Source: a virus (Duplodnaviria; Heunggongvirae; Uroviricota; Caudoviricetes). Taken from it: a stretch of DNA of 64,000 nt. The position numbers were made by a program, and so were the translations under genes. Below are positions 14,080-63,806 of this stretch, in pieces. The DNA is taken from IMG/VR virus record IMGVR_UViG_3300029736_000004. One strand, given 5' to 3'. The notes under the pieces are model-generated. The model was not told the DNA's origin. It saw only the letters and a list, made by a program, of their open reading frames with translations, and ran no database searches. The first letter of the stretch is position 1. Each line of letters begins with the position of its first letter.

Positions 14080-14184
14080 AAAACACACAGTTGCGCCCTG
14101 GCATTATCGTGGGGTATATTTCTACGGCACCTTAGAAAAACGGGTGCCGGGATTGGAACCCCGGATAATGTCAAAGGCGACACA

Positions 14185-14206
14185 GACGCCGAAAGCGTCT
14201 TTTTTT
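14185..14206 (+). terminator. intrinsic terminator-like hairpin
   Basis: GACGC-CGAAA-GCGTC followed by TTTTTTT. Confidence 0.45.
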
Positions 14207-14224: not shown

Positions 14225-14330
14225 GCCATACGTAGCGTTTAGCTCAGAGATCAATGGTAGTGCTGGCTGGGCTGCCGAAAGGCAGGCCGGTTCCCTTTGA
14301 CGCCGGTAGTTCCAACCCAGTCAGTGCTAC
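14225..14330 (+). ncRNA. c4-like antisense RNA (immI-type), approximate bounds
   Basis: Contains GGTTCC, CCTTTGAC and GTTCCAA complementary to TTGGAACC and GTCAAAGG found upstream (14151-14177) and over the icd RBS (14341-14383); local hairpins. Confidence 0.4.
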
Positions 14331-14391
14331 CGCCATTGAGATTGGAACCTCACGCGGTAGCTCCTTAACTTAGTCAAAGGAGGCTGCCAAT

Positions 14392-19204: not shown

Positions 19205-20402
19205 CTTCCTGAAAAATCAGGACGGGCGATATATCACTGACGGCCTGTCCTCTAAGGATTTCACACGCGTATTTGAACTCATCAGGAAAGAGCAAAACCG
19301 CAAACGCCGCCAGGCGCACAGGACACTCACGCCGGGCAGGCTTAGGAATAAATCAGCCGAAGACATTCTTAAGCTGGGGAAAAAGAAAGGCGGCACGTTC
19401 TTTACGCGTGACGATCTGAAAGGCTTCGAAAAGCTGCGAAGCAAAGCTCGCGAAAAATACGACAGCAAGACGGCTGGCATTACATACGCACAACTGGTAG
19501 CGTCCAGCCAGGCTATCGATATTAAGCGAGCAAATAACGCCGTAGACGACGGTTCTGGTATCAAAAGAGCTACGCCCGTATCTCTTCGTCACAATGTGAT
19601 TAATATCCGCGTGGAAGCGTCCGATATATCCGTTCACCAGCACCACATTGTCCGGGTACGTTTTGAAGAATGGGATCAGATGGTCGATGACATCGCAGAA
19701 GACGATAAATCAGCCCTGAAAGTCACAAAATCACTGTGTGCCGGGCGAGTGTCTTTCGATTGTGACTGCGGTCGCCATCAATACTGGTATCGCTACATCG
19801 CCACTGCGGGTAACTTTGCCCTGGCCCCGCCAAAAGAATACGCCTATCCAAAAGTTCGCAACCCTAAGCTGCAAGGCGTCGCCTGTAAACATGTGATCCA
19901 CTCAATGACACGACTACAGTCTGCCAGTTGGCAGATGAGTATTGCTCGCGCCCTGCAAAAAGCTGCAACGCAAGTTGCCTTTGGTGACGATCGCCGCCGC
20001 ACGACAAAACACTTCACAAAAGAAGACGAGAAGGCGTTCAATCGAAACCGTAGCAGCAAAACGAATGTTGAGGCAGCTAAACGTGAATGGAAGCTCTATC
20101 AGAAACGCCAGGCCGCTTTAAGCTCAAAACTGGCAAAGGACAACGGTAAGATCGACAAGCTGCGCGACCAACTGACCAGGGCCAGAAAGTTATCCGACGC
20201 ACAGAAAAAACGGGCAGCGGCAAAAGAAGCTGCTTTGCAACGGGAGAAGCAGAAAAACAAGGAACTTCAGCAACGCCTTGCTGATCAGTTCGCACTGAAG
20301 AAGCAGGCGTTCATTGATGCGCTTGTTATGGCAGGAACACCACCAGCACAAGCCGAAAAGATGTTCATGGCGTATGTGAAGAACAACGTAAAAAATGTAT
20401 AA
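19197..20402 (+). CDS. hypothetical protein with CxC...CxH zinc-finger-like motif and Lys/Ala-rich coiled-coil tail
   Basis: SFDCDCGRHQ...GVACKHV motif; C-terminal 120 aa highly charged and helical. Confidence 0.45.
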   Translation: MPDFLKNQDGRYITDGLSSKDFTRVFELIRKEQNRKRRQAHRTLTPGRLRNKSAEDILKLGKKKGGTFFTRDDLKGFEKLRSKAREKYDSKTAGITYAQLVASSQAIDIKRANNAVDDGSGIKRATPVSLRHNVINIRVEASDISVHQHHIVRVRFEEWDQMVDDIAEDDKSALKVTKSLCAGRVSFDCDCGRHQYWYRYIATAGNFALAPPKEYAYPKVRNPKLQGVACKHVIHSMTRLQSASWQMSIARALQKAATQVAFGDDRRRTTKHFTKEDEKAFNRNRSSKTNVEAAKREWKLYQKRQAALSSKLAKDNGKIDKLRDQLTRARKLSDAQKKRAAAKEAALQREKQKNKELQQRLADQFALKKQAFIDALVMAGTPPAQAEKMFMAYVKNNVKNV

Positions 20403-20603
20403 GTGTTTGCAAGGACATGAATAGTACACTATTATGATGGTGAAGGAATGGTACATGTTGAACCAAACCTTCGAGGATGCAGCAGACTGAAGAAATTCAG
20501 ACATCCCGCAACCAGCTATCATAACAGGTCAAACCAGTTGTGATACTTGGTCAAGGCAAAGTCCGGTAATGGCGTTCTGAATACCAGAAAATAATTTCTG
20601 GCG

Positions 20604-20634
20604 AAGCCCACCTTAAGGTGGGCTTTGTTATTTT
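20604..20634. terminator. terminator-like hairpin
   Basis: AAGCCCACC-TTAA-GGTGGGCTT followed by T-rich tract. Confidence 0.4.
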
Positions 20635-21167
20635 GGTGGCTTAGGAAGCGGTTTGTTCCTTAACAGATTGTATGCGATTGCGAAAAACTTCACTGACCTG
20701 CCATTTGGTTTTTCTGATACCGGGTAGGCGCTAGTGATGTGTAACCGCAACTTTTTCTTTTCCCTGAAAGCCTTAAACGCAACAAAATAATACTCCTTGT
20801 TACCCTCCCCAATATTTACCTCAATAACGGCATAGCTTCCGTATCCGGCATGGATCACCTTACCTTCCGACAATGACAGAATTGCCTCTTTTAAGTGAAG
20901 TTTGGCAAGATTATAGCGACGCTCACAAAATGGACGAGACTCTTTAGGGGCGTGGTACATTAACGCCAGTTTCTCTTCCTCAGTCTGGTGTGCATAGTCT
21001 TTTGTGAAGCAGTGAAAAGAGTACGTAACCCAAAAGCGATACTCTATCGGTTGCTTTCCTTCTTGTTGCTGAACAAACACAGCCTGATGAGCATCAAGAA
21101 ATGACAAATCACGAATAACACCATCAGGGTGTTCAAATGCTCGCCACTTTTCAACTTCCTGACTCAC
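20628..21167 (-). CDS. hypothetical protein (179 aa)
   Basis: Isolated minus-strand ORF between plus-strand operons. Confidence 0.45.
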   Translation of the reverse strand: MSQEVEKWRAFEHPDGVIRDLSFLDAHQAVFVQQQEGKQPIEYRFWVTYSFHCFTKDYAHQTEEEKLALMYHAPKESRPFCERRYNLAKLHLKEAILSLSEGKVIHAGYGSYAVIEVNIGEGNKEYYFVAFKAFREKKKLRLHITSAYPVSEKPNGRSVKFFAIAYNLLRNKPLPKPPK

Positions 21168-21318
21168 TGTCTCTCCTTAAATTTCAACCGAGCAATGATA
21201 CCGCACCTCTGATAGTTTTCGCCTCCCCAATCTACATAAATCTCCTGTCAGCAAACAAATCACAATCTCCCGAAAATCTTCCTTTCGATACCTGATAAAT
21301 CGACCTTTGAGGACGCTT

Positions 21319-26164: not shown

Positions 26165-27074
26165 TATTGGTGCTAAATTTATTTCTTATAGCGACAATCA
26201 TCGTCCTGCGGCGGAAGCCACTATCAACCATATGCGACGTATTCGCTCGGAGGACGAATTTGATCGCCCCGTCTTTAAGTGGGTCGGCGGCAAATTTTCT
26301 GCACTGCCCATTATCTTCGAACACCTGCCCCACGGAAAACGGTTGATAGAACCTTTCGTTGGAGGTGGCGCTGTTTTCACTAATGCCGGATTTAAAAGCA
26401 ACCTGCTGAACGATATCAATAATGACCTGATTAACTTCTATCAGACATTGCAGCGTGAAGGGCATTCTCTTATCACACTGGCATATCGTTTTTTTCAGGA
26501 TTACAACTCTGCTGATGCATTTTTGAATGTTCGCAATGCATTCAACAATGGTGCTTATGATTCTCTTCACCATGCGGCGGCGTTCCTGTATCTCAATCGT
26601 CATTGTTTTAATGGCGTCACTCGCTATAACCGTAAAGGAGAGTTCAACGTCGGATATGGAAAGCAGAAATCTCCCTACTTCCCTCTCGCGGAAATGGAGG
26701 CGTTCCTGGATGACGATATTTCAAAGTATTCGGAGTTTGTGTCCGGCGATTTTGCTGGTGTAATTGAGGCTGCCGGGAATGATGATGTGATTTTCTGCGA
26801 TCCCCCCTATGAACCATTGCCTGACACTACCGGATTTACAAATTACTCAGGGCATAGCTTTAGGTTTGAAGATCAACAACGGCTGGTGTCACTGCTGGTG
26901 GATGCCCACAGACGCGGAGCGAAAATTGTGATAACAAACAGTGGTGCGCCTAACATTCGCGAACTTTACGTTGGCAATGGCTTCAAGGTGTATCCTATGC
27001 CATCCCGTCGCTCTGTATCCTGTAAAGCATCAACGCGAATGATAGCTAACGACATTATAGCCACGCTTAATTAA
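26157..27074 (+). CDS. dam: DNA adenine methyltransferase (Dam family)
   Basis: FKWVGGK and DPPY motifs; GTG start with AAGGAGG RBS. Confidence 0.8.
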   Translation: MADIGAKFISYSDNHRPAAEATINHMRRIRSEDEFDRPVFKWVGGKFSALPIIFEHLPHGKRLIEPFVGGGAVFTNAGFKSNLLNDINNDLINFYQTLQREGHSLITLAYRFFQDYNSADAFLNVRNAFNNGAYDSLHHAAAFLYLNRHCFNGVTRYNRKGEFNVGYGKQKSPYFPLAEMEAFLDDDISKYSEFVSGDFAGVIEAAGNDDVIFCDPPYEPLPDTTGFTNYSGHSFRFEDQQRLVSLLVDAHRRGAKIVITNSGAPNIRELYVGNGFKVYPMPSRRSVSCKASTRMIANDIIATLN

Positions 27075-27077
27075 GAA

Positions 27078-27098
27078 AAGCCCCATATGGGGCTTTTA
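27078..27098 (+). terminator. intrinsic terminator after the methyltransferase operon
   Basis: AGCCCCA-TA-TGGGGCT followed by TTTTAT. Confidence 0.5.
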
Positions 27099-27099
27099 T

Positions 27100-27205
27100 A
27101 ACATCAAACAAGCACCGTTACGGTACACTAATAACACCATTCTGGTACTAAAAAGGAACCAAAGCAGCCTCAAAATAACACATGGAACCAAAACGGTGTT
27201 ATTCC
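27100..27205. repeat. repeat cluster flanking the ParA/ParG operon (downstream side)
   Basis: AACACCATTCTGGTACTAAAAAGGAACCAAA and AGCCTCAAA..TGGAACCAAAACGGTGTT units shared with 28140-28375. Confidence 0.45.
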
Positions 27206-27209
27206 GGCG

Positions 27210-27497
27210 TCATTTTGTATCCTCAGACTCTGCAAGCATGAGGATAGCATGGCGGATCATATTCAATTTGCTGCGATTATGCTTTTTGCTTAACGCATCA
27301 AGTACCTGGTACTCGTATTCATTGAAGCCAACACGAATGGATTTAAAATCACGTGGGGCGTCCTTATCGAGCACTTTGTTGTCTTCTGGTTGCTCACCCG
27401 GCACCAAATCAGCTTTGCTGGCAAAAGCCTCAATTCGGCGTTCAAGATCGAGGTCTTTTACTTCGGGGGCTTTTACCGATTTACGAGGCTTAATCAC
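27210..27497 (-). CDS. ParG-like ribbon-helix-helix partition protein
   Basis: Small protein directly downstream of the ParA gene; C-terminal beta-strand/helix pattern IRVGFNEYEYQVLDALSKKHNRSKLNMIRHAIL. Confidence 0.5.
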   Translation of the reverse strand: MIKPRKSVKAPEVKDLDLERRIEAFASKADLVPGEQPEDNKVLDKDAPRDFKSIRVGFNEYEYQVLDALSKKHNRSKLNMIRHAILMLAESEDTK

Positions 27498-28131
27498 TTA
27501 ATAACTCCTTAACCAACATCTGGATTTCACCTTTAGCTTTCCCGTTGTCCATCTCAACAACGCCCTTCCCTTCAGCCATACAATCGCGGTAAACCTTGCG
27601 ATCGCGAATGATGGTTTTCAGCAACTTCAGTTGCGGATATTCAGCAAGGTACTCTTTGGCCTCATTGGCTTCATTCACAACCGGATTGGATGGGGCCATT
27701 GTTAAGACTGCGCACGCCTTAATGCTAGGATTAGGCATCAGATCCAAAGCCTCTTCAAAGACTTCAACAAAATGCGCCAGCGTGTCTAAATCTGGCTGAG
27801 ATGGCCTGAATGGAACAAGCAAAACATCCGCCGCAGTAATACCGGTGCGCATCTCTTTGCTATCACGACCAGCGGTATCAACAACCACAAATTCATAACG
27901 CTTGTCCAGATCAAGAAGTGTTTCACGAATATTCCCAAACTTCTGGACGCAATGAATTACTGGAGAAACCTCTGCCGCATTACGGTCCGATGCCCAACGG
28001 GCAGATGTTCCTTGCTTATCTGCATCAAGTAGAACTACGTCCTTATTTGCGCGGGCAAGCTCCGCACAAATGTTTACGCTGGTGGTTGATTTGCCACAGC
28101 CACCTTTTTGGCTGGCTACCAATATAATCAT
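27490..28131 (-). CDS. parA: ParA-family partition ATPase (small type Ib, ParF-like)
   Basis: Deviant Walker A KGGCGKST near N-terminus; 213 aa. Confidence 0.85.
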   Translation of the reverse strand: MIILVASQKGGCGKSTTSVNICAELARANKDVVLLDADKQGTSARWASDRNAAEVSPVIHCVQKFGNIRETLLDLDKRYEFVVVDTAGRDSKEMRTGITAADVLLVPFRPSQPDLDTLAHFVEVFEEALDLMPNPSIKACAVLTMAPSNPVVNEANEAKEYLAEYPQLKLLKTIIRDRKVYRDCMAEGKGVVEMDNGKAKGEIQMLVKELLSD

Positions 28132-28139
28132 ATCCGTTC

Positions 28140-28375
28140 CTCGGTGTTATTTTGGTATCAAAATGGTTCCAAACAGAAGCCTTATTGATGCGGTTTTGGC
28201 TCTATAGTGGAGTCACTATGCTTTGCAAAAGTATAACACTAAACACTCTAAATTTGCCCTCTGTTGCATCCTGTTTAACACGAAATCAGCCTCAAAGTGG
28301 AACCAGACACAAAACAGCACCATAACAACACCGTTTTGGTACTAAAAGAACACCAAATTAGAACCATAACAGTAT
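28140..28375. repeat. repeat cluster upstream of the ParA gene (candidate centromere/operator)
   Basis: GGTGTTATTTTGGTATCAAAATGGTTCCAAA and CACCGTTTTGGTACTAAAAGAACACCAAA related units. Confidence 0.45.
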
Positions 28376-28400
28376 AAAAAAGGCTGCAAATTGCAGCCTT
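28375..28400 (-). terminator. intrinsic terminator after parR (minus strand)
   Basis: Perfect palindrome AGGCTGCAA-A-TTGCAGCCT followed on the minus strand by TTTTTAT. Confidence 0.5.
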
Positions 28401-28416
28401 TGAAGATGTAGATTTG

Positions 28417-28782
28417 TTAATCAGGGAGTGAGTTTGCCAAATTCTGTGCAGAGCGGCTTTTCGAAACGCCAGGTTTTTTAACATCCGCTGAGGCAGAGGG
28501 GTTTCCTTCAGGGTTTTCCCGAACTTCAGGCGAAATTTCAAGAAATGAAACCAGCATTTTTCTGATCACTTCAGGGCTATTATCACCGGATAAAAGCGAT
28601 GCCAACATGGGAGGTAATCTGCTATCAACCTCGCCAAGAGCGATACCTGCAAGCATCGCTGTGCGCGCCATATCATTGCGATCTCTTAATGGATGGCCCT
28701 CAAGTTTTGCATCAGCATATTGCTCACTGGCGTTAAGACCAGGACGAAGATAAAACAATACTTTTCGACGTTCCTGAGACAT
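28417..28782 (-). CDS. parR: ParR (StbB-like) centromere-binding protein
   Basis: Resembles R1 ParR (RKVLFYLRPGLNASEQYADAKL...RTAMLAGIAL); directly downstream of parM. Confidence 0.7.
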   Translation of the reverse strand: MSQERRKVLFYLRPGLNASEQYADAKLEGHPLRDRNDMARTAMLAGIALGEVDSRLPPMLASLLSGDNSPEVIRKMLVSFLEISPEVRENPEGNPSASADVKKPGVSKSRSAQNLANSLPD

Positions 28783-28792
28783 GGCAACCTCA

Positions 28793-29752
28793 TCAACCGA
28801 TAGATTTTAGACCATAGACAAGAGCAAGTTGTGGATCATCAGCAACGAAAAACCTATCGTCACGAATGTTTACCTGCTCACGGATAGCATCAGCAACAAG
28901 CGGCGCGCCGCCACCAATGACCATAACATGCGTGTATCCTTTGAAATCACTGATCACATCCAGTACGCGTGTACGGAGTCGTTCTATGCTTGACGAAATG
29001 GCTTTCTTAACATCATCAATAGCAGACGGATCGTTAATATTGTCGGTCAAATAATCCTCATCATCACGATTAATGATTAATTGATCGACATTATAATTAG
29101 AGGTTTCGGTATTCGCTTTTGCAAGTGCCTGTCTGACCTCTTTAGTTACCAGCGAAACGCCGAGATTAGAATCGCCAAATACGCGAGAAACGGCGGTCAT
29201 TTGCCCGGCGACCATCGACACATCCAGAGTAGTCCCACCAAGATCAACAATAAGCACAGAATGCGCTGGCACAAGGCTGTCGCACAGACCGATCCCTGCG
29301 GGTATTGACTCCGGGCGCACAGTCACTTTTTTGATAGTAAAAACCTGACCTTTGTTAAGGGTGACTGGTCGCATCAGGCTGGCCTTTTTCCGCTCAATAT
29401 TTTTCATGTTGTATTGTGCGTCGTCGTCATAAAACTCTGCCAGTGGCAACGTGACAACTATTTCCACTTCTTGAGGCTCAATGCCACTTGTAAGCAGGGC
29501 ATGATGAACAGCAAGCACATTAAGCGGGCTGTATTGCCATTCAACGTTATTCGTCGGCAGCACATCCGGCGAGATCAAGTCATATGAATATTTTTCGTCA
29601 TCAATGATGTAGTTAAACGGCTTTCCTGCGCCAAATGTGGCGGACCATCCACGTTTAAAACTGTTCGGACAGATATGGGTTCGAGTTTCCCCGTCTTGTT
29701 CCCACAGCATTTTGATATTGGTAGAACCATCGTCGATAAAAATGCGCATCAT
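28793..29752 (-). CDS. parM: ParM (StbA) actin-like segregation ATPase
   Basis: MMRIFIDDGSTNIK...NSFKRGW...AVHHALLTSG matches R1 ParM; start at ATG with GGAG RBS. Confidence 0.85.
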   Translation of the reverse strand: MMRIFIDDGSTNIKMLWEQDGETRTHICPNSFKRGWSATFGAGKPFNYIIDDEKYSYDLISPDVLPTNNVEWQYSPLNVLAVHHALLTSGIEPQEVEIVVTLPLAEFYDDDAQYNMKNIERKKASLMRPVTLNKGQVFTIKKVTVRPESIPAGIGLCDSLVPAHSVLIVDLGGTTLDVSMVAGQMTAVSRVFGDSNLGVSLVTKEVRQALAKANTETSNYNVDQLIINRDDEDYLTDNINDPSAIDDVKKAISSSIERLRTRVLDVISDFKGYTHVMVIGGGAPLVADAIREQVNIRDDRFFVADDPQLALVYGLKSIG

Positions 29753-29766
29753 ATTGCTCCACTTCT

Positions 29767-29940
29767 GAGACACATTTGAGAAAGAATTGAATTTTATATG
29801 AGAAAACAAAATAAGACCAGAAGTTAGATAGCGTAAAAAGCATCAAACTAGAGACGTAAAAGAGACACAAAAGAGACTTAGATGATACATGATGTACCCA
29901 CGATACCCATTTGAGACAAATCAGAGACAAATATGAGAAG
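29767..29940. repeat. parC-like centromere: clusters of 11-bp-phased (A/T)GAGA(C/A) repeats
   Basis: AGAGAC at 29851, 29862, 29873 and TGAGAC/AGAGAC/TGAGAA at 29913, 29924, 29935; more copies at 29767-29805. Confidence 0.6.
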
Positions 29941-30001: not shown

Positions 30002-30286
30002 ATGAGTGCAATAGCGACCAGTGACACAGTTTGTTCTGGTCATGGAGGATTCCCTCCGCGACCTGTAGCAGAAACAGTTTCCTGGTTTACCGTAAATGGA
30101 AAGCCAGTGGTTGTAGATGGGGGAGCGTTCCCCAGCCATACAGACGGAAATAGCGCGCACCCCGGATCAGCCGTATCGACGCGCTCATGGTTTGCAATAG
30201 GCGGAAAAGGAGTTGTTTGTGTGGGAGATCCCCTTTCTTGTGGCTCAGTCATCGCCAATGGTGAGGCAATTTTTCAGGTGTCATAA
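30002..30286 (+). CDS. PAAR-motif spike-tip protein
   Basis: NGKPVVVDGG and IGGKGVVCVGDPLSCGSVIANG PAAR-like repeats; AGGAGG RBS. Confidence 0.55.
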   Translation: MSAIATSDTVCSGHGGFPPRPVAETVSWFTVNGKPVVVDGGAFPSHTDGNSAHPGSAVSTRSWFAIGGKGVVCVGDPLSCGSVIANGEAIFQVS

Positions 30287-63546: not shown

Positions 63547-63679
63547 TCAGGCTTATATTCATGCCGTCGTAGCAAATTCTGCGACCGGGTTTAGCAGCCT
63601 GAATGTTAGTGCGGACAACCGCAGATATCCGATATTGCGGTATTTTTGTGTCCGTAAAACCGCGTTACGCCCAAATTAT

Positions 63680-63745
63680 GGTGGGGCGTGATGGGGAGGC
63701 TTCGGCCTGCTGGTTTCACTAACGCCAGTCTGCTAACCCCGTCAC
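63680..63745 (+). ncRNA. second c4-like antisense RNA (approximate bounds)
   Basis: CACTAAC and CTGCTAA complementary to GTTAGTG and TTAGCAG found at 63591-63611 and over the icd RBS at 63760-63798; GGC-TTCG-GCC tetraloop hairpin. Confidence 0.4.
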
Positions 63746-63806
63746 GTCCTGCCACCTGTTTAGCAGCGGGTAGCAGGTTGTTAAACCTGTTAGTGAGGCC
63801 GTAACT

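Follow-up and report, generated by a model that had tools for sequence, protein, structure and literature searches.

A probable segregation module of two tandem partition cassettes in a D6-like phage-plasmid

Organisation of the locus

The virus record IMGVR_UViG_3300029736_000004 provides a stretch of DNA of 64 kb, which we refer to as the window and whose positions are used for all coordinates below. Between a plus-strand gene for a Dam-type methylase, which ends at 27074, and a plus-strand PAAR gene, which starts at 30002, the window contains four open reading frames (ORFs), all on the minus strand. We describe them here as a putative double partition locus, in which a type II pair (parM and parR) is followed by a type Ib-like pair, parA and a small gene for a 95-amino-acid protein that we call parG. 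The genes and the segments that bound them are as follows.

30001-29753, minus strand: leader of 250 bp with repeats
28793-29752, minus strand: parM (stbA-type), 318 or 319 amino acids, actin-like segregation ATPase
28417-28782, minus strand: parR (stbB-type), 121 amino acids, centromere-binding adaptor
28373-28401, minus strand: intrinsic terminator of parMR, AAAGGCTGCAATTTGCAGCCTTT followed by TTTATAC, also found in D6
28378-28132, minus strand: repeat-bearing regulatory region of 247 bp
27490-28131, minus strand: parA, 213 amino acids, type Ib-sized partition ATPase
27210-27497, minus strand: parG, 95 amino acids, candidate ParG/type Ib ParB analogue, with a GTG start and an 8-nt overlap with parA
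27076-27097, bidirectional: perfect 11+11 palindrome AAAAGCCCCAT/ATGGGGCTTTT, a terminator-like hairpin

The parR gene begins 10 nt after parM, and the start of parM is placed one codon later, at 29749, in the RefSeq annotation of a 99.4% identical plasmid. The terminator scan gave a stem at 28401-28379 with 10 pairs and a T-run, on the minus strand and between both operons. At the far end of the locus the hairpin at 27076-27097 is 100% complementary and loop-free, and it separates the end of the methylase gene from the end of the parA-parG operon. An initial annotation, made from the sequence letters and a list of ORFs, had placed four ORFs at these minus-strand coordinates, which we confirm. 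It had read them as a type Ib-like ParA with a small ribbon-helix-helix (RHH) partner and repeats on both sides, next to a ParM/ParR pair with an 11-bp-phased parC-like array, and had proposed a minus-strand terminator between the two operons. The terminator is the one recovered by the scan, and both pairs are borne out, the first by Pfam and ParF matches, fold evidence and a 7-mer test, the second by Pfam, the R1 and pB171 structures and counts of the GAGAC motif.

The type II cassette

ParM matches both halves of the family in Pfam, with 233 bits to StbA_N and 189 bits to the ParM C-terminal domain. Its residues 2-319 align with residues 1-319 of R1 ParM (4a62), with an E value of 2e-110 and 54% identity, and the nucleotide motifs are intact (phosphate-1 DDGSTNIK, phosphate-2 DLGGTTLD and adenosine IGGGA). 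ParR is assigned by a match of 53 bits to Plasmid_stab_B (cut-off 25), and its residues 3-78 match the pB171 ParR structure 2jd3 with an E value of 4e-7. Judged by sequence, the N-terminal domain of ParR is of the RHH type and homologous to that of pB171 ParR.

Upstream of parM lies an array of short repeats.

29767-29940, minus strand: parC-like centromere/operator, nine TCTC-core iterons in three triplets

The iterons start, on the minus strand, at 29939/29928/29917, 29877/29866/29855 and 29804/29782/29771. Their phasing is exactly 11 bp inside the triplets, and the triplets are 40 and 51 bp apart. In the array GAGAC is present in 6 copies per 200 bp; the window averages 0.1, and nowhere else in the 64 kb does a 200-bp stretch reach 4. 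On these window-wide counts we reject chance or low complexity as the source of the iterons. The proximal pair of iterons adjoins the Shine-Dalgarno sequence of parM, and the TCTC iterons are kept at the 11-bp phase in D6 despite diverged surrounding sequence. The region also contains a conserved TAAAAT at 29796-29791, which is a possible -10 element.

The layout resembles that of R1 ParMRC, in which 11-bp-phased iterons likewise stand directly upstream of parM and parR follows parM. The parC of R1 consists of two blocks of five iterons that flank the promoter. The array in the window instead has three blocks of three, with gaps of 40 and 51 bp.

The type Ib cassette

The Pfam matches of ParA are CbiA, AAA_31, MipZ and VirC1. 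The protein has a deviant Walker A motif, KGGCGKST, at residues 9-16 and lacks a helix-turn-helix (HTH) domain at its N-terminus. Its closest solved structure is TP228 ParF (4dzz), to which residues 4-211 align over residues 5-202 with an E value of 3e-18, and it spans positions 1-203 of the 203 in the NCBIfam model ParA_partition (NF041546). Identity is 42% to a pB171-type par2 ParA and 45% to IncI-type ParAs; the IncI-type par system of pESBL has been validated by experiment (PMC7602700). In an unrelated plasmid (L004) a ParA of 67% identity and an RHH protein of 52% identity adjoin RepB, and they are the sole par-like genes within the 8.6-kb stretch examined.

The 95-amino-acid product of parG is harder to place. 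As a single sequence it has no match in Pfam or in the PDB (E up to 10), and NCBIfam returns only a sub-threshold RelB-like match. In PHROGs the protein is its own family, phrog_9169, with an additional weak Arc-like match at an E value of 5e-4. A word-indexed homologue search found close relatives only, and an exhaustive HMMER search was needed for the distant ones, of which it returned 101, all small. Positions 46-87 of a profile of 92 members align to the RHH proteins HP0222 and CopG at an E value of approximately 0.1, and among the 92 members Pfam finds NikA-like domains in 17 and RHH_1 in 9. The AlphaFold2 model has a predicted local distance difference test (pLDDT) score of 89.7 overall and of 96-99 at residues 50-90. 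It is laid out as an N-terminal helix (15-29), an extended segment and a strand-helix-helix, with the C-terminal RHH at about residues 52-92. The top Foldseek matches of this model are all RHH proteins, with template modelling scores to the target of 0.76-0.84 and root mean square deviations of 1.0-1.5 Å; ParG itself (1p94) is at rank 4, with an E value of 0.29. These lines of sequence and model evidence are individually weak and jointly consistent with an RHH fold that carries an N-terminal tail.

Homology to ParG of TP228 at the level of sequence was found neither in the single-sequence search of the PDB (E up to 10) nor among the profile matches, and BLASTP of the protein against the IncI-type 100-amino-acid and pB171-type 91-amino-acid small ParBs gave no match. 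Since the likeness is one of fold and comes without sequence homology to ParG, the description "RHH ParG-like" in the initial annotation holds for fold and architecture and not for the sequence family. The pair otherwise resembles TP228 ParF-ParG-parH in that ParF is the closest structure to ParA and that the small protein combines a flexible or helical N-terminal part with a C-terminal RHH. The basic N-terminus (M-I/V-K-x-R) is conserved, with K3 present in 70 of 91 and R5 in 78 of 82 family sequences. Tails of this kind in ParG and ParB proteins activate ParA. By analogy with those centromere-binding proteins, the conserved N-terminus may be a ParA-activating tail, which it resembles.

The family of such ParA partners (P0016-P0114) forms approximately 100 clusters at 50% identity, with proteins of 55-130 amino acids. 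Its signature is N59/E62/L66/R75/R82 together with a highly conserved M-V/I-K-R/K-R N-terminus, and a new RHH-ParB family model might be founded on it.

Repeats on both sides of parA-parG

The parA-parG operon is flanked by clusters of a second repeat type, hexamers with an ACC or GGT core, and by elements that could control its expression.

28278-28378, minus strand: distal upstream cluster, candidate first centromere/operator, hexamers at 28299, 28316, 28327, 28349 and 28360
28201-28228, minus strand: putative parA promoter, TTGCAA-16 nt-TATAGA (in D6 TTGCCA-17 nt-TATAGA)
28143-28170, minus strand: proximal operator-like triplet, GGAACCATTTT GATACCAAAAT AACACC, direct hexamers 11 bp apart
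27098-27209, minus strand: downstream repeat cluster of 112 bp, candidate second centromere (parC2/parS-like), ACC/GGT-core hexamers

The putative promoter was picked out by eye and is absent from the output of the consensus scan. The proximal triplet sits between this promoter-like element and the ribosome-binding site of parA and is nearly invariant in D6. In the downstream cluster the hexamers lie at 27111, 27133, 27155, 27184 and 27195, with spacings that are multiples of 11 and with ACC-N5-GGT inverted pairs. The two clusters resemble one another, with 75% identity over a stretch of 44 nt and several further matches in inverted orientation. The number of 7-mers common to both flanks is 33; shuffled sequences give 4.0 +/- 2.5, and 2000 pairs of random window segments reach 20 at most. 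The consensus GGTKYY/RRMACC is found in the flanks at 32-45 per kb against 4.4 per kb, a 7-10x enrichment, often as ACC-N5-GGT and at a spacing of 11 or 22 bp, and the densest 250-bp stretch of such hexamers in the window starts at 28298, with 9 matches against a mean of 1.1. On shuffles, random pairs and hexamer enrichment we also reject chance or low complexity as the source of the flank repeats.

Similarity between the upstream and downstream flanks is above chance in D6 and in L009, a variant further diverged, as well. The downstream flank of L009 has 17 7-mers in common with its own upstream flank and 5 with the upstream flank of the window. As the RHH protein of L009 is 75% identical to that of the window, this sharing suggests that the flanks co-vary with the binding protein. 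In the plasmid Kacie_13 the same k-mer test between upstream and downstream flanks was not significant, the choice of region being arbitrary there, and two RRTACC hexamers 11 bp apart follow its small gene.

With the flanks described, it can be asked whether ParA and its RHH partner are a partition system at all. They might be a regulator pair, or a VirC1- or MipZ-like positioning ATPase for another cargo, with the repeats acting as operators only. Such a role would fit the VirC1 and MipZ matches in Pfam, the position of ParA under the NCBIfam ParA_partition cut-off, the fact that RHH proteins are mostly repressors or antitoxins and the label "cop" given to a neighbouring gene (PMC6799933). 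However, the best full-length matches of ParA are ParF and the pB171-type and IncI-type ParAs, which are bona fide partition ATPases, and the combination of an ATPase, an overlapping small gene and two-sided repeats is that of the type Ib systems of pESBL, pB171 and pSM19035 (PMC7602700). A homologous pair adjoins RepB in an unrelated plasmid, and the array downstream of the operon lacks an obvious operator role. We therefore consider a non-partition role highly improbable.

The replicon and its relatives

The locus is 99.4% identical to that of the Escherichia coli plasmid NZ_LR890273 and 85% identical to that of phage D6, and the whole window is collinear with the 92.8-kb NZ_LR890273 at 98-99% identity. 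This plasmid is annotated with P1-like phage genes, RepB, a Cre-like recombinase, Phd-Doc, HigBA and HicA. RepB maps to approximately 40.2-41.0 kb in the window, about 10.4 kb from parM, which agrees with the separation of partition and replication reported for the subgroup P1-g2 (PMC7969092). The initial annotation had contrasted the locus with the type Ia ParAB system of P1. The contrast is correct, but its frame is not: the replicon is D6-like (P1-g2) with RepB, and no ParAB or SopAB of type Ia (a large ParA with an HTH domain and an HTH-ParB), nor any par gene beyond the two operons, appears in the full annotation of NZ_LR890273.

A comparison with other phage-plasmid genomes, which had been proposed as a check, finds the double locus in D6 (orf58-61) and widely elsewhere: 113 PLSDB plasmids carry parA-parG and 110 of these align over at least 80% of the double locus. 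D6-like elements occur in E. coli, E. marmotae, E. fergusonii, Salmonella and Shigella. D6 has the genes in an identical order (parM/stbA, parR/stbB, terminator, parA, small gene) and likewise places them between dmt and an upfC-like gene, and amino acid identity to the window is 94% for ParM and 96% each for ParA and the small protein. The D6 ParR has 112 amino acids against 121 in the window and is 59% identical, and the iteron arrangement differs while the TCTC core is kept; unlike D6, the window has a minority parMRC allele.

The genes have been named before. The GenBank record of D6 gives orf58 and orf59 as StbA/StbB-type and orf60 as a possible ParA, and near-identical RefSeq plasmids (97-99.4% over the locus) carry the labels ParM, "plasmid partitioning/stability family protein" and "AAA family ATPase". 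In the literature cop, parA, stbB and parM are listed for the Salmonella D6-like plasmid pYU39_89 (PMC6799933), and "ParA-Ib-type ATPase; RHH domain-containing protein" is listed for D6 (PMC8026635). The double locus is thus a standard, conserved and already annotated maintenance module of D6-like phage-plasmids, real but ordinary.

Inactivating lesions, which the initial annotation had named as a reason to doubt either system, are absent from the par genes of the window. Compared with D6-type alleles, parM has a synonymous divergence (dS) of 2-3, which is saturated, an amino acid identity of 94% and a ratio of nonsynonymous to synonymous divergence (dN/dS) of 0.013-0.019, while the dN/dS of parA is 0.03-0.055. 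Both ATPases are under strong purifying selection.

Allelic mosaicism and the origin of the locus

The two cassettes have not travelled together. Compared with the locus L007, the window is 99-100% identical over parG-parA, 77% in the intergenic region, 55-65% over parR, mostly 76-84% over parM and 45-58% over parC. In NZ_CP104667 the relation is reversed, with a parM 99.9% identical to the allele of the window and a parA-parG that is only 93.9% identical. The parM allele of the window is found in just 7 PLSDB plasmids, compared with the 113 that have parA-parG. On the sequence evidence the two cassettes reassort independently inside the D6-like lineage. Within each cassette the adaptor is the more divergent part: in D6 identity is 59% for ParR and 94% for ParM, and in L009 it is 75% for the small protein and 95% for ParA. 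Adaptors and repeats that outpace their motors in divergence are usual for specificity determinants.

Tentatively, and with no great expectation that it is right, we suggest that the DNA-binding protein and centromere of each cassette act as an exchangeable specificity module, independent of the motor and of the other cassette. If this were true, related prophage-plasmids could escape partition-mediated incompatibility and co-reside, and having two systems that differ in mechanism would shield the element during replacement of a specificity or in hosts that suit one of them poorly.

The same pattern bears on whether both cassettes are in use. Both could be intact while, depending on host or condition, a single one works and the other is a back-up, a host-range adaptation or mainly a determinant of incompatibility or exclusion against related phage-plasmids. 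SCP1 has two functional systems, and only one of them is critical for its stability in the laboratory (PMC13245405). D6-like elements span Escherichia, Salmonella and Shigella, and the faster divergence and reassortment of DNA-binding proteins and centromeres is what would be expected of specificity or incompatibility determinants. On the other hand, purifying selection is strong on both ATPases, essentially every member of the lineage keeps both operons, and in Shigella pINV two functional partitioning systems are reported to influence maintenance (PMC6519299). A single working cassette is a possibility that we take seriously but think unlikely.

The initial annotation had also suggested that two segregation systems on one replicon might reflect a cointegrate history. 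On this view a P1-like phage formed a cointegrate, or recently fused, with a plasmid that had a second par system, and the double locus is the scar. The maintenance genes are indeed of another type than P1 ParAB, and the cassettes have separate histories (parA-parG 99-100%, parM about 80% and parR about 55-65% identical to L007). Nevertheless, G+C content is uniform over the locus and its flanks (0.42-0.47), which leads us to reject a foreign-island origin on composition. The locus is bounded by dmt on one side and the upfC-like gene on the other both in D6 and in relatives only about 80% identical in their backbone, a phage-backbone position kept in all relatives, and the annotation of NZ_LR890273 has no second replication gene, insertion sequence or junction near it. 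From uniform composition, constant position and the lack of a second replicon or junction it follows that a cointegrate history is unsupported, and the mosaicism is that of allelic replacement through homologous recombination and not of fusion. We regard a fusion scar as very unlikely. The other suggestion made for the double system, selection for very high stability, is plausible.

The downstream end of the locus differs between lineages. A glnS gene (glutaminyl-tRNA synthetase) lies directly 3' of the small RHH gene in D6 and in many D6-like plasmids, and also in L007 and L009. In the lineage of the window, which is without glnS, the hairpin and the methylase gene adjoin instead, and the downstream repeat cluster differs accordingly; the comparison was made between window 27050-27210 and L001 2069-3998, L007 1-598 and L009 1-598.

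Comparison with known double loci

The closest precedent is the double locus of pB171, in which par1 is a ParMRC system and par2 a type Ib ParABC system (Ebersbach and Gerdes 2001, cited in PMC4270457 and PMC7602700). There too the type II and type Ib systems are directly adjacent, and the type Ib repeats lie upstream (parC1) and downstream (parC2). As a stand-in for pB171 we used L010, a PLSDB locus of the pB171 type, recognised by a ParR that matches 2jd3 end to end with 264 bits. Identity between this locus and the window is 42% for ParM, 42% for ParA and 33% for the N-terminal domain of ParR. The main architectural difference is that the operons of L010 are divergent, while those of the window are in tandem on one strand with a terminator between them. 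In pB171 the divergent operons have the central parC1 region in common, and regulatory cross-talk between its systems was reportedly described by Ringgaard in 2007. Unlike in pB171, no repeat type shared between the two cassettes is apparent in the window. The type Ib array downstream of parR might conceivably be a site of unrecognised cross-talk.

The likeness to pESBL lies in short direct and inverted repeats on either side of the operon (PMC7602700). The repeat itself differs, being the octamer GATAACAA in pESBL and an ACC/GGT-core hexamer at a spacing of 11 or 22 bp in the window. A survey from 2026 counted 971 PLSDB accessions with a type I RHH-ParB system together with a type II system and called the combination previously reported (PMC13245405).

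Proposed function

We consider it very probable that the region is the segregation module of a plasmid-prophage, a D6-like (P1-g2) phage-plasmid, and that it comprises two independent tandem partition cassettes. How these would work we infer by analogy, with ParMRC acting as in R1 and the ParA cassette as in TP228, pB171 par2 and pESBL, and the binding of the repeats, autoregulation and any contribution to stability belong to this analogy. In the type II cassette the 11-bp-phased TCTC iterons upstream of parM would be occupied by dimers of ParR. The complex of ParR with parC would cap the actin-like filaments of ParM-ATP, which are dynamically unstable, and stabilise them, and these filaments would then push sister plasmids apart. 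Binding of ParR would also repress a parMR promoter inside the array. In the type Ib cassette dimers of the 95-amino-acid RHH protein may coat the arrays of ACC/GGT-core hexamers on either side of parA-parG, with the upstream array, including the triplet between promoter and ribosome-binding site, doubling as an operator. The basic N-terminal tail would stimulate the ATPase activity of nucleoid-bound ParA, so that plasmids become equi-positioned over the nucleoid. The terminator would insulate the two operons. Independent operation is favoured by that terminator and by the difference between the repeat types and, since each cassette relies on a DNA-binding protein and a repeat type of its own, the two would be expected to work in parallel, jointly cutting the loss rate of a low-copy prophage.

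Several points weigh against this reading. ParA scores 158 bits against the NF041546 equivalog cut-off of 180 and is therefore a divergent member below the NCBI threshold, and the scores behind the RHH assignment of its partner are individually weak (E values of 0.1-1) for a very small domain. The GGTKYY/RRMACC consensus is degenerate and was defined post hoc from the sequence itself, and the consensus promoter scan gave no convincing sigma-70 promoter for either operon. One member of the lineage, pMUB-MIN14-1 (L008, NZ_CP069647.1, 467-2988), has parM and parA each spread over two frames. Its small RHH gene is degraded, with 56% amino acid identity over a partial match, and its gene table has parR only; the lesions could be real decay or the product of an error-rich assembly. 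A search of the searchable literature, which does not include the D6 genome paper, returned no experiments with D6-like elements or their par loci, and the parABS2 system of SCP1 is not critical under laboratory conditions, an example of a redundant par system that can be dispensable (PMC13245405).

As a discovery the double locus carries little weight, because D6 was annotated in 2018, the RefSeq copies are annotated, and the combination has been studied since pB171 and is common in PLSDB. The modest value of the analysis lies in candidate centromere and operator sites for both D6-like cassettes, in a fold assignment for PHROG 9169 and with it approximately 100 clusters of small ParA partners that are without Pfam, and in the evidence for reassortment of adaptor/centromere pairs between lineages. 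They provide targets for work on stability, incompatibility and curing in this group of phage-plasmids, which occurs in clinical E. coli, Shigella and Salmonella.

Neighbouring genes and RNA elements

The PAAR-domain gene (30002-30286, plus strand) is divergent from parM and is annotated as P1 upfC-like in D6 and as PAAR domain-containing in RefSeq relatives. Its start and ribosome-binding site fall within the 250-bp leader that it has in common with the parC-like array.

A search of Rfam found no RNA family within the double par locus. Elsewhere in the window there is a full-length match to the sroH small RNA family at 20441-20626 (plus strand), with 113 bits against a gathering score of 80. 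It lies within a segment, approximately 20383-21257, that has no megablast alignment of more than 400 bp to the otherwise collinear NZ_LR890273. Rfam also places two copies of the P1-type C4 antisense RNA on the plus strand, at 14250-14337 and 63674-63759. An isrK-like element (14127-14205) lies upstream of the first copy and an a1/b1 target element (63553-63605) accompanies the second, and the two C4 RNA sites suggest that this single element contains two immunity-type (immI-like) regulatory modules.

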